22,963 nucleotides of DNA from a virus (taxonomy: Duplodnaviria; Heunggongvirae; Uroviricota; Caudoviricetes), in the IMG/VR virus record IMGVR_UViG_2802429249_000003, positions 1 to 22,963 of that record; one strand, given 5' to 3'. The number at the start of each line of letters is the position of its first letter. The stretch's first letter is position 1. Made by a program: the position numbers. Shown here in pieces: positions 3,001 to 6,000 of the stretch.

Positions 3001-6000
3001 ATCACATCGGTGATCTCCACACTGGCCAGATAGTTACGGATGATGTGTTTTGCCATTGATACCGCCAGATGATTTTTCCCGGTTCCGCAACTACCAGTCA
3101 TAACAAGACTGGTACCGTTCTCCAGCATATCTGGCCAGTTCTCCGCATAGCGGCGACAGGCCGCAAGATTTCTGGCTGCGTCAGGATTAACCTCCAGATA
3201 ATTATCAAACTCGCAGTCCCGAAAACGCAGGGCAATTCCGGCGTTATCAGTCAGCTCTTCCGCCTTGATGGACGACAGCTCCATGGTCAAATCGTTGGCC
3301 TCAGCGATCAAGCAGTCAGGGCAGCATGAAATTTTTTCTCTGTCCTCGCCATTACGATCGCCCCACACCAGAATATGTGTGTGGTATTCGCCATGTTTTT
3401 CGCAACGCCCGCGCCCTTCACGCATCCAGCAAGAACGATAAGGCCATGGCTTTTCGCCCTTCTGAGCAAATGCAATCTCTGCCCGTAACTCATCCATTCG
3501 CGCCTGTAGTCTTTTTTGTTGTTCACGCAGGTTAAACGTCATCATCGCTGTCACCTCAGAATGTCAGTTTGTCACTGGATTTACCGAATTTGTCAGACAT
3601 GGCTCCCAGGCCAGACAGAACATCGACCTGCCGCTGTCGCCCACCTCCGGGAGCGGCTGGCTGTTGCCAGAATTCTTCGAAGTGACGATCGGGTCCAAAG
3701 AACGTCGCAGCCTGCTTCACGAACTGTGTGCCGGTATTTCCTGTAGCACGTACCCAGGCGGCATACCGCTTCACGCCATCAAGCATGGTCTCCGGTTTTA
3801 TTCCCTCCCTGATACGGGCTTTCCAGGCTTTGAAGGCTGCCGACTTGGAATTACCACCAGCACGTTTGGGATATTCCTGCCAGACCTGTTCAAATTCCGG
3901 TGAATATTCCTGTCGGGCGGAACGCGCTGGTGCAGACGCGTCAGCGGATGCGCCAATAGTTGATTCATTGACTGGTTCTTTGACTGGTTCAAAAGAGTGA
4001 CTGGTTCTGGGTGAATCTCCTGCACTACCCCCTGGTGCAACTCCTGCACCACCTGGTGAATTTGCTGCACTAGGTAGTGAATTATTTGCACTACCACCTG
4101 GTGAATCTTTTGCACCATCAAGACGAAGAAGATAAATATTGCTCGAGTTCCCTTTTTCACCTTTCCGGGAAACTTTTTTTACCAGTCCGGATTCACAAAG
4201 AGCCGTAATATGATTCATCACAGAACGTTTGCTAATCTCGCACTGATCAGCAATATGCTGATAGCTGGGCCAGCACTCGCCCTGATCGCTGGCATTATCA
4301 GCCAGCTTAATCAGAACCAGTTTTCGCAACGGATTTCCTACGCGAATTTTCATCGCTTTCACCATCAGCTCCATGCTCATAACACACCTCCCAGGCGTTT
4401 AAACATTTTTCCGGACTGAAACACTGCCAGTGGATAGCTAAGGGTATGAGTGCGTCCCTGAACCTGACAGACAACCTTCTGGCTTTCTGTGTTGACCAGA
4501 CAAACCCGCAGAACGTGACCGTTGCTGGTGGTGAACCACTGCCCCACACGGGGGCAACGGTTGTATCGGTGATACAGAGAATTCACAACACGACGAATCA
4601 TGGACGCACCTCCGCCGTTGTGATGTATTTAACCGGGCTGCCTTTCATTGCGATGGTTTCACACATCTCCGCTGCTTTACGTTCCGCTGTTTTCCTGGAT
4701 TTATAGCGGCGGTGCCAGACAGACGTATCCGTGCGAACTGATACATCGTTTCTGTATTCAGTTGTGAAAATAATAATTTCGTAACTAATCATGGACGCGC
4801 CTCCCATTGATTACGGCAGAAAGCGGTAAGATTCAGGCTGTTCTCTGCCTCATGGAATGCTTCAATGCAGCTCTCGTAGTACCGCATTGTGCGCAGACTT
4901 AACCCAAGCTGAAGCATCATCAGACCATCAAGGGTGATGTAATAACCACGCAGGGAGTCACCATAGATGTGATAAGTACTCGGTATGAAATTGCGGGTAA
5001 AAAATTCGCGTGAGCAGTTCAGATACTCGATTTTGTCGACGATGTTCTGGTGCATGCGCTTAAAGTGGCAGGCAACATGCAGGGAGAAAATAACGGCCTT
5101 GCCGTTGACGACTTCGATTTTCAGGTATGGGGAAGTTGGGACTGTAGCCATGATGGCAGCCTCCGTATGCAATGGATAACTTCCACCACCGGAGGTTCCA
5201 ATCTCACTGGTGGTGAACTGGACAGGGTTGGAACTACCGGCGCATACGGAAACCGGCGAGCCTTTCGGCTCCCCTGCCCAGCCCACCATAATTCTGGCGT
5301 GCGTGAGCGCGGACGATAAAAAAGACGCTGGCGCGTCATATATCGCCGTATGCAATTCCGGGGTTCCAATCCCGGCACCCGCTTTATAAGGTGCAGAGAC
5401 AGTGTAACGTCCCGAAATTGCAGAATCAATATTTAGGCTTGAAACATTCATATGCTTACTGGTATTTTTACTAACGCAAATGTTCTTGGATGTTACTGGC
5501 TTACTTCTTTTGTGAAGTTGCCTTTACTAACGTTGAGCGAGCCGGGCCACTCCCCGGCTTTTTTTTCACCGCTGCCAACCAATAACCTGAAATAACCCCA
5601 TTTTCGGGTGATACCAGCGAGTCCCTCGCGGTTCTGCTTCCTCCATAACCCGATAAAAAGCAGCCATAAACGGTTCCACAGCAACAATTGCGCGACGTGA
5701 TAACAATCCGTCCGGCGTCATAAACTCGTGGGTATCTGTAGGAATTTGATAGGCGTTCACCAGATTGCGGCATTTATCATCTGACAAACCGGTTTTTGCT
5801 TTCAGTTGGCGATATCCGGCATAGCCCTCACGAATGGTACCCCTTTTGATTTGCTCAACTGTTTCGGCAACATGGCTGACTTTTTCTTCCACCTGAGTGA
5901 TCCGTTTCTGCTGACGAACGGCTTCAAGAGCCATCGCAGCAACCATTTCGATTTCGCTCATTGGCTTACGGATCTGTTCTTCCAGTTCGCGCCAGCGATC

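Follow-up and report, generated by a model that had tools for sequence, protein, structure and literature searches.

A candidate small RNA unit with a strong intrinsic terminator, divergent from the isrK promoter, at the rha-isrK boundary of Escherichia coli prophages

The window analysed here, a stretch of 22,963 bp from an E. coli prophage of the Caudoviricetes, carries on its minus strand an rha gene (5566-6273) coding for an anti-repressor-like protein with a Phage_pRha domain, the upstream neighbour of the region under study. It is followed by two small RNA genes of the same strand, isrK (5318-5394; RF01394, 65.4 bits against a gathering score of 50) and the C4 antisense RNA (5206-5293; RF01695, 84.3 bits against a gathering score of 45), and the isrK/C4 pair behind rha constitutes a P1 immI-like module. 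In the Rfam isrK match, model position 1 falls on 5394, and a minus-strand promoter recognized by eye at 5401-5429 comprises TTGATT (5429-5424), a spacer of 17 nt and TACACT (5406-5401), with +1 at G5394. This stretch is invariant in alignment A1; its score of 8/12 explains why it is missing from the list returned by the promoter scanner. Beyond C4, the minus-strand frame at 4789-5151 (120 aa) is the probable true coding sequence of the C4-controlled Rha-domain regulator, with its Shine-Dalgarno (SD) sequence GGAGG (5164-5160) lying inside the a2 target GCATACGG (5170-5163), and the start of an O-like gene is at 4380. For the most part, the neighbouring ORF annotated as 'ash family' (220 aa) overlaps the two RNA genes, which bears on the annotation of the locus. 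A first-pass annotation of this DNA had described all nearby genes as minus-strand, which holds within about 700 nt; beyond that distance, a plus-strand gene identical to L13 of phiP27 lies at 6374-7045 and a cI-like gene is read in the plus sense at 7323-8054. The same annotation had placed a transcript antisense to the junction of rha with the next gene, a description that is not supported, as the neighbour consists of the isrK and C4 RNA genes, preceded by a spacer in front of the isrK promoter.

At the rha end of this spacer lies an intrinsic terminator oriented for plus-strand transcripts (stem-loop 5539-5560, T-run 5561-5568), identified by scanning, folding and conservation. Its stem, the top match of the terminator scan, pairs GAGCCGGG with CCCGGCTT through 8 pairs, 6 of them G-C, around the loop CCACTC, with a hairpin energy of -14.5 kcal/mol, and the T-run TTTTTTTT follows directly 3', its last T's overlapping the TGA stop codon of rha (5566-5568). 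A strict scan, calling for a perfect 7-bp stem with at least 5 G-C pairs, a loop of 3-8 and no fewer than 6 T's among the 8 bases that follow, returned this terminator as the sole site on both strands of the window, where 200 dinucleotide shuffles gave a mean of 0.01. The plus-strand terminator is real and far beyond chance, and the strong terminator placed earlier at 5541-5566 is borne out with essentially the right coordinates, the rescan giving 5539-5568. Viewed on the minus strand, the hairpin has an A-run before it and CGCTCAACG after it; because a T-run is absent from that strand, the terminator is unidirectional, acting on plus-strand transcripts only, and the hairpin is not a terminator of rha.

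It is conceivable, if somewhat unlikely, that this terminator is an insulator whose only selected role is to stop plus-strand transcription arising near the isrK promoter, any short RNA being a by-product. Such a role would be in keeping with its rank as the best-conserved and statistically strongest element of the locus, with the different plus-strand terminator found at the same place in phiP27 and with the lack of an RNA target in the searches described below. Plus-strand read-through would run against rha and cro and in the reading direction of the L13-like gene and cI, and therefore could disturb the immunity switch. If the terminator were an insulator and nothing else, the finding would be an ordinary one.

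Mosaic joints delimit the cassette (5433-5571) in which the terminator is embedded. In other phages, matches cover only 5300-5432, on the isrK side, or only 5572-5700 (phiP27, 99%), and the joints at 5432 and 5572 flank a candidate -35 element and the T-run, respectively; these comparisons show the cassette to be a discrete, self-contained mosaic unit. It comes in three sequence types (A, B and C), all of which keep the -35, a TGn-10 element, a 10-nt block, a central hairpin and the terminator. The arrangement GTTGAG-GAGCCGGG..CCCGGC-T(6-8) is kept across the types, and every copy examined has its 6-8 T's after an 8-bp stem. Type B is present in 204 of 5,426 complete E. coli genomes and types A and C in approximately 60 more, such that the cassette overall occurs in some 5% of these genomes, in addition to many prophage contigs. 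Carriers include E. coli SE11 (type A) and, with type B, O103:H2 12009, O145:H28 RM12761, O26:H11 and ST131 isolates. With the 3' end of rha as anchor, the cassette was likewise found in 93 of 108 loci from IMG/VR and the reference set and, with the isrK promoter as anchor, in all but one of 37 metagenome contigs (36/37). Its context is constant, always between rha and the isrK-C4 RNA module, and in annotated records always between the labels 'Rha family' and 'ash family'. A search of metagenomes for further types yielded the same three only, and GTDB species representatives yielded none, with only chance matches in unrelated taxa. No second copies were found elsewhere in the collected loci; a 14-nt repeat in two of them (L057 and L020), considered as an extra copy, lies inside an HTH gene (E = 0.4) and was rejected.

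The cassette sits exactly at a mosaic junction and is confined to E. coli prophages, and in other phages the same gap holds a small minus-strand ORF or nothing. These features might point to a relic, either the leftover terminator of a lost plus-strand moron or a module-boundary sequence maintained by linkage, with no present function. We consider this very improbable, given that the same architecture is built with different hairpin sequences in three diverged types, that more than 200 loci included no variant with a larger plus-strand insert, and that the cassette is as frequent in complete genomes as noted above.

A candidate promoter precedes the terminator on the plus strand. The hexamers and the 18-nt spacer reported for it in the first-pass annotation were correct and the coordinates were not: the -35 element TTGAAA lies at 5439-5444, 8 nt to the right of the 5431-5436 originally given. 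The promoter scan and conservation both indicate an extended -10 element (5460-5468), in which TGg (5460-5462) precedes TATTTT (5463-5468). This candidate matches the consensus at 9/12 positions in addition to the extended -10 TG, precisely the result that the scanner gives for lambda p_o. Taken by itself, the match does not exceed chance expectation, because promoter-like sites of such quality are not enriched in the region relative to shuffles (11 found, 16.7 expected), and support for the promoter thus comes from its conservation rather than from its match score. The -35 TTGAAA is present in 61 of 62 loci that were retrieved through the Rha protein, which makes its conservation independent of any DNA search pattern. 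Among the three types, the -35 is kept at 6/6 positions, the TG at 2/2 and the -10 at 5/6, with type B reading TGa followed by TATCTT; the single -10 change falls at a weakly conserved position, and T-12, A-11 and T-7 are common to all three. The spacer differs at 7 of its 18 positions between types A and B. Spacing from the -10 predicts a transcription start at 5474-5476, and an AAC occurs 5-7 nt 3' of the -10 in all three cassette types. The candidate promoter and the isrK promoter stand back-to-back with 9 bp between their -35 elements, and the conserved -35/-10 stretch corresponds to 40-75 nt upstream of the isrK start; its conservation could instead reflect upstream elements of the isrK promoter. 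We infer that the candidate plus-strand promoter at 5439-5468 would fire.

Near its 5' end, the RNA predicted to arise from this promoter would carry the 10-nt block GTTCTTGGAT (5482-5491, plus strand), which is conserved in all three types with only rare single-base variants (L091, L098 and L233) and is flanked by sequence bearing both indels and substitutions. In the RNA, the block GUUCUUGGAU is conserved but partly paired in the predicted folds. It opens a stem-loop, SL1 (5482-5538), tipped by a GC-rich apical hairpin at 5498-5522, with a minimum free energy of -31.1 kcal/mol and z = -4.1 to -4.2, a stability reached by 0 of 200 shuffles. The type-specific hairpins are out of register in the MAFFT alignment A2, and each type was therefore folded on its own. 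Types A, B and C fold into the same plus-strand architecture (z = -4.1, -3.5 and -3.3), with apical hairpins that are built of unrelated sequences (GGC..ACUUC/GAAGU..GCC, GGAGC.GUUU/AAAC.GCUCC and GGC.CUGC/GCAG..GCC) and are constant in position to within 1-2 nt. Evidence from covariation is thin, since the independent types number only three and all come from E. coli prophages. An insulating terminator would leave unexplained both GTTCTTGGAT and the position of the central hairpin, each kept across three types whose sequence in between has diverged by indels, along with the maintenance of the promoter elements.

The central hairpin is about as stable on the minus strand (z = -2.7, -5.0 and -3.75). 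This stability bears on the proposal, in our view distinctly improbable, that the hairpins act on that strand within pR read-through mRNA and that the resemblance to a plus-strand terminator is incidental; they might then serve as 3' stabilisers or processing sites of the rha mRNA or as a leader of isrK-C4, uses that we deem improbable to the same degree. Both hairpins do fold on the minus strand, with z values from -2.7 to -5.0, and the first begins 8 nt past the rha stop codon. Two common wobble-type variants (GGAGCC>GGAACC and CGGAGC>CAGAGC; 20 loci) pair only on the minus strand, but three others (GAAG>GAGG, CCGGG>CTGGG and GCC>GTC) pair only on the plus strand. Assignment of the strand from G-U versus A-C variants was rejected as uninformative at this 3-to-2 split, and the hairpin variants do not reveal the functional strand. 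Less easily reconciled with action on the minus strand are the 6-8 A's before the hairpin, which have no known role in an mRNA and which, read as T's, complete a canonical terminator kept in every copy.

Two open reading frames were considered as plus-strand small proteins and rejected. The only plus-strand ORF beginning 3' of the predicted start (5490-5585) crosses the terminator and has its ATG changed to ATT in type C, and a second (5452-5595) begins upstream of the -10. Rfam (release 15) contained no match at the gathering score for the plus strand of 5430-5570; at E<=10, it returned chance matches on the terminator hairpin only (Vault, PyrR204 and SorY; 13-14 bits). By eye, the resemblance of the cassette RNA to the pairing sites of C4 and IsrK extends to only 5-6 nt (UUGGA, and UAUGC in the SL1 loops of types B and C). 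A complement search of phage sequence, checked across 81 cassette loci, found no conserved trans target. The start of the cI-like gene was rejected as a general target, its 10-bp complement to the predicted RNA (7315-7324) being no better than chance and shared by only 6 of the 81 loci.

A plus-strand transcript from this position would share the direction of lambda P_RE, antisense to cro and sense to cI, and could in principle be an attenuated leader made from an establishment promoter, normally halted at the terminator and under some condition passing it to run antisense through rha and cro and express the L13-like gene and cI. This we regard as extremely improbable: the terminator, with 8 bp and 8 U, is a strong one, the predictions show no alternative anti-terminator fold, the first plus-strand gene lies approximately 800 nt away and cI approximately 1,750 nt away, and no cII-like activator site was identified.

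With slightly more confidence than doubt, we favour the reading of 5433-5571 as an undescribed unit that specifies a plus-strand, non-coding small RNA of approximately 92 nt (about 91-95), divergent from the isrK promoter. The plus-strand RNA suggested in the first-pass annotation is retained in the form of an independent unit of some 90-95 nt, favoured by the comparison of the three types and by the mosaic joints; literature on IsrK, OOP, EcOnc/AsxR/AgvB, HnrS, Pas and the terminator sequence yielded no paper, transcript or expression data for it. Under the small RNA reading, a sigma-70 extended -10 promoter at 5439-5468 would initiate near 5475 a transcript presenting, in order, the conserved GUUCUUGGAU near the 5' end, the long GC-tipped stem-loop and the strong terminator at 5539-5568. 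Its synthesis would diverge from the isrK promoter and converge with the early rightward operon, which occupies the minus strand, and its action would most likely be in cis. The RNA would be perfectly complementary to pR read-through transcripts within the spacer that separates the rha stop codon from the isrK promoter; the resulting duplex of approximately 90 bp would be a substrate for RNase III. Cleavage would then separate the rha mRNA from the isrK-C4-antirepressor module and leave the 3' end of rha open to decay, the mechanism that Krinke and Wulff (cited in PMC7067206) reportedly described for lambda oop acting on cII. An effect on rha is nevertheless conjecture, as antisense overlap with the rha coding sequence is essentially nil. 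The terminator would also block antisense transcription through rha and cro into the plus-strand L13-like gene and cI. Less probably, the RNA might act in trans in the manner of Hfq-dependent small RNAs, using the conserved 5' block; its predicted tail of 6-8 U's behind an 8-bp stem is of the kind that such RNAs carry.

A broader proposal, which we think unlikely, would make this transcript a third RNA of the C4/IsrK-type antirepressor node, a divergent small RNA that tunes Rha, the C4-controlled antirepressor or both, and perhaps host genes through GUUCUUGGAU, within the lysis-lysogeny circuit. If so, it would be co-regulated with the isrK promoter and would influence both the lysis-lysogeny decision and spontaneous induction in a widespread group of E. 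coli prophages that includes Stx2a phages of serogroups O145, O103, O26 and O111 as well as ST131 prophages. More generally, if the RNA is made, it would represent an undescribed regulator of the early/immunity region in a common E. coli prophage family that includes Stx2a-converting phages. The candidate adjoins the IsrK/C4 antirepressor switch and the Rha regulator and therefore could affect prophage induction, and hence toxin release.

Among known systems, P22 sar is a small antisense RNA of the immI antirepressor control region that is convergent with antirepressor transcription and covers the ribosome-binding site of ant. The RNA predicted here (about 5475-5568), by contrast, covers no ribosome-binding site: the SD and ATG of the antirepressor-like gene lie at 5164-5149, with the SD approximately 310 nt away, and the ATG of the 'ash' ORF (5451-5449) is upstream of the predicted RNA start. 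More sar-like in appearance is the arrangement in phiP27, where an unrelated plus-strand hairpin with a T-rich tail follows the same rha stop codon. There, a promoter recognized by eye (TTGATT-18-TGaTATTGT) together with this terminator would specify an RNA of approximately 55 nt that spans the SD and the GTG start codon of L15.

The immediate neighbours of the candidate, with which the cassette always travels, belong to the family of the P1/P7 C4 RNA, the P4 CI RNA and Gifsy-1 IsrK/STnc1160 (RF01695, RF01394). The C4/IsrK RNAs are, however, encoded on the other strand, and neither model recognizes the candidate; the published descriptions searched (PMC4825925, PMC7067206, PMC10111431) make no mention of a divergent partner RNA of IsrK/C4. 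Short, terminator-ended Hfq small RNAs of prophages are represented by AsxR/AgvB, HnrS, StxS and Pas in STEC and EPEC, which sit at conserved positions in lambdoid prophages (PMC4104026, PMC13502914, bioRxiv 10.64898/2026.05.13.724894). Those RNAs occupy late, lysis or moron regions, whereas the candidate lies in the immunity/early region, and no match between its sequence and theirs was found in Rfam or in the literature text.

The closest likeness in layout, and in layout only, is to lambda oop. Like the candidate, oop ends at a strong intrinsic terminator; it has a weak extended -10 promoter of its own, as is predicted for the candidate, and both are directed against the early rightward operon and lie at the 3' end of the regulator gene behind cro, rha occupying the position of cII. 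To this extent the first-pass description of the candidate as oop-like is upheld; it does not extend to sequence similarity or to the antisense overlap. Homology was rejected on local alignment of oop (L212, 776 to 700) with types A, B and C, which recovered a 13-nt terminator tail only, with a score of 16 against shuffle means of 13.3-13.4 and 13-16% of shuffles scoring as high; by this comparison of sequences, the candidate RNA is not an oop homologue. The lambda RNA is 77 nt in length, compared to the predicted ~92 nt here. Its extent, which we take to be 776 to 700 although it is not annotated in the lambda record, gives by arithmetic an overlap of 55 nt with cII, which ends at position 754 of the lambda locus record, whereas the candidate overlaps rha by at most the 3 nt of the stop codon. 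A counterpart of oop, OOP-BTP1, has been described in the Salmonella prophage BTP1 (PMC7067206). In lambda, oop lies directly upstream of O, while here the isrK-C4-antirepressor module and two small ORFs (approximately 1.1 kb) intervene; oop is experimentally established, and the candidate is a prediction from sequence. Should the RNA indeed be made, oop-like antisense units would have originated at least twice from unrelated sequence at one and the same map position.

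The candidate lies in the early region of a lambdoid prophage, where a cI-like S24/HTH repressor gene (7323-8054, plus strand) is accompanied on the minus strand by a cro-like gene (7059-7286), rha (5566-6273) and an O-like gene (3556-4380) followed by a DnaC-like ORF. Wedged between the cro-like gene and rha is a plus-strand gene (6374-7045) that is 100% identical to L13 of phage phiP27 and matches nothing in Pfam or PHROG; when extended, its ORF overlaps the start of rha. At the other end of rha, the reading given somewhat better than even chances is a predicted plus-strand sRNA of about 92 nt, running from ~5475 to ~5568.

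The plus-strand terminator reported there by the first-pass annotation is present. Its stem, GAGCCGGG-CCACTC-CCCGGCTT (5539-5560), has 8 pairs, 6 of them G-C, is followed directly by eight T's (5561-5568) and folds by itself at about -14.5 kcal/mol. A strict scan of both strands of the 22,963 bp (a perfectly paired 7-bp stem with 5 or more G-C pairs, a loop of 3-8, and 6 or more T's among the 8 bases that follow) returned this site and no other, against an average of 0.01 in 200 dinucleotide-preserving shuffles. By these criteria, 23 kb of prophage sequence holds a single canonical intrinsic terminator. Termination is expected in the plus direction only, since the minus strand presents an A-run before the hairpin and CGCTCAACG after it.

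The promoter scan places a putative -35 TTGAAA at 5439-5444 and, after an 18-nt spacer, a -10 TATTTT at 5463-5468 that is preceded by TGg as an extended -10 (match 9/12); motifs and spacing agree with the first-pass annotation, whose coordinates were off by 8 nt. Sites of 9/12 quality number 11 in the region, compared with 16.7 expected from shuffles, and the predicted promoter thus counts only via its conservation. As a control, the same promoter and terminator scanner run on lambda recovers t_o and p_o (TTGAGT-17-CATAAT; 9/12, TG), and the equal score makes the candidate as promoter-like as the genuine p_o. That promoter and terminator instead belong to an attenuated P_RE-like leader is very improbable. 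A minus-strand isrK promoter, read by eye as TTGATT-17-TACACT (5429-5401; +1 at G5394), lies back to back with the candidate, the two -35 elements being only 9 bp apart, and the conserved stretch could also serve this divergent promoter.

Positions 5433-5571 behave as a unit, a cassette with one end beside the -35 and the other beside the T-run, because homology breaks on both sides in megablast searches against phages: in many phages the match is confined to 5300-5432, and in phiP27 it starts only at 5572 (99%). Three diverged sequence types, A, B and C, were distinguished. Type B occurs in 204 of 5,426 complete E. coli genomes, including O103:H2 12009, O26, O111, O145:H28, a few O157:H7 and ST131 isolates, and types A and C in ~60 further genomes. 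With the rha 3' end as anchor, 93 of 108 loci carry the cassette; among the 80 nearest Rha loci of IMG/VR 63 have it, and with the isrK promoter as anchor 36 of 37 metagenome contigs do. It lies between rha and isrK every time. It is absent from GTDB species-representative genomes, which gave chance matches only. TTGAAA is kept in all three types (61/62 loci not chosen via a DNA pattern), as are TGnTAT(T/C)TT, AAC at the predicted start, GTTCTTGGAT and a 3' part reading GTTGAG(C/T)GAGCCGGG...CCCGGC and then 6-8 T's. The middle is diverged between types, with indels, and the promoter spacers of types A and B differ at 7 of 18 positions. This pattern of conservation is that expected for a small independent gene; a relic or recombination joint is a poor prospect, ranking just below the minus-strand reading considered next.

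Folded separately, the three types give a common plus-strand structure (z = -4.1, -3.5 and -3.3) in which a short 5' tail leads into a long stem-loop, GC-rich at its tip, and the terminator follows; the tip hairpins are unrelated in sequence and yet fixed in position to within 1-2 nt. Plus-strand ORFs in the cassette are not credible as protein genes. The hairpins fold about as well on the minus strand, and of the few wobble-type variants three favour the plus strand and two the minus. Only terminator polarity and promoter geometry indicate the plus strand. Elements of the minus-strand mRNA make an improbable explanation. Literature searches found no transcript evidence for the candidate RNA, and a text search with the terminator sequence returned nothing. 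Papers on IsrK (PMC4825925), Salmonella prophage transcriptomes (PMC7067206), EHEC EcOnc/AsxR/AgvB (PMC4104026), HnrS (PMC13502914) and Pas sRNAs (bioRxiv 10.64898/2026.05.13.724894) treat other loci, mostly in late regions.

What the first-pass annotation took for the next gene is an RNA-based antirepressor switch of the isrK/C4 kind (PMC4825925, PMC10111431). Rfam matches identify isrK (5394-5318, minus; 65 bits) and the C4 antisense RNA (5293-5206, minus; 84 bits), and the sequence itself shows the base-pairing scheme of P1 immI and Gifsy-1 IsrK. UUGGAAC and GCAUACGG in isrK (a1/b1) are matched by complementary GUUCCAA and CCGUAUGC in C4 (a'/b'), and both targets are duplicated at 5202-5163, overlapping the SD GGAGG of ATG 5151, which completes a P1 immI-like set (a2/b2 over the SD, 5202-5149, minus). 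The two RNA genes are predicted to control the 120-aa Rha-domain protein (phrog_995 and Rha-like) that starts at this ATG. The PGAP 'ash family protein' ORF (4789-5451, minus; 220 aa) spans both RNAs, and its Phage_ASH match (Pfam, residues 16-108) overlies them, so the N-terminal part of this CDS is probably translated RNA region; its 8 codons upstream of isrK lack an SD and carry 4 non-synonymous changes between types A and B. In phages without the cassette (L006-L008: Stx1a phages, SfV and Stx2_14040), a small minus-strand ORF (MQVLNRWFRDGRGRRVHVIRWEP..., ~1640-1825) fills the gap between rha and the isrK promoter. Deposited annotations join it in frame to the 'ash'/Ant ORF, and the resulting CDS probably combines a small protein with two RNA genes and the antirepressor.

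The predicted sRNA would most likely act in cis, pairing within the spacer from rha to isrK with transcripts that read through from pR. With oop as the model, the resulting duplex may be RNase III-sensitive, which would uncouple rha mRNA from the downstream module and destabilise the rha 3' end. The terminator would also shield rha, cro, the L13-like gene and cI from plus-strand read-through; that it is an insulator and nothing else is unlikely, if the most serious of the competing explanations. A trans-acting role via the conserved GUUCUUGGAU block is possible. A 10-bp complement to this block, with one G-U, occurs at 7315-7324 (plus sequence ATCCAAGAAT), in the start region of the cI-like repressor just before ATG 7323; as a general target it was rejected, since the window yields such a match by chance and, of 81 loci that carry the cassette, only the 6 with an immunity region of the phiP27 type have it. 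Separately, GCAAATGTTCTTGG, the type A 5' block, has an exact 14-nt copy in the same orientation in two loci (L057, 4088-4101; L020, 5141-5154), ~2.7 kb downstream within an HTH-domain gene (..LANVLGC..), probably by chance (E = 0.4 in the sequences searched). The window also contains, at its left end, a sok antitoxin RNA in full length (405-578, minus; RF01794, 116.9 bits), which implies a hok/sok-type toxin-antitoxin locus there.

PhiP27 (L005) carries the same rha allele beside a different neighbour. Directly after its rha stop (1407-1500) is an unrelated plus-strand hairpin, GGCCGG-N9-CCGGCC (7 pairs, 6 G-C), with the T-rich tail TTTCTTATTT, preceded by a promoter read by eye as TTGATT-18-TGaTATTGT (8/12). 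A transcript from this promoter to the hairpin would be ~55 nt long and run antisense across the SD and GTG start of the antirepressor gene L15, an arrangement closer to P22 sar. This second, unrelated terminator suggests that selection favours antisense termination or an antisense RNA at the rha junction. With lambda oop, the cassette RNA shares no similarity except in the terminator tail. The candidate touches rha only at its stop codon, whereas oop, its extent on the lambda record presumed rather than annotated, covers 55 nt of cII by arithmetic with the cII coordinates; the isrK-C4 module, moreover, separates the candidate from the O-like gene. Of the oop-like antisense RNA first proposed, a plausible plus-strand sRNA gene is therefore retained and the comparison holds as analogy: the candidate is an analogue of oop in layout, not a member of its family.
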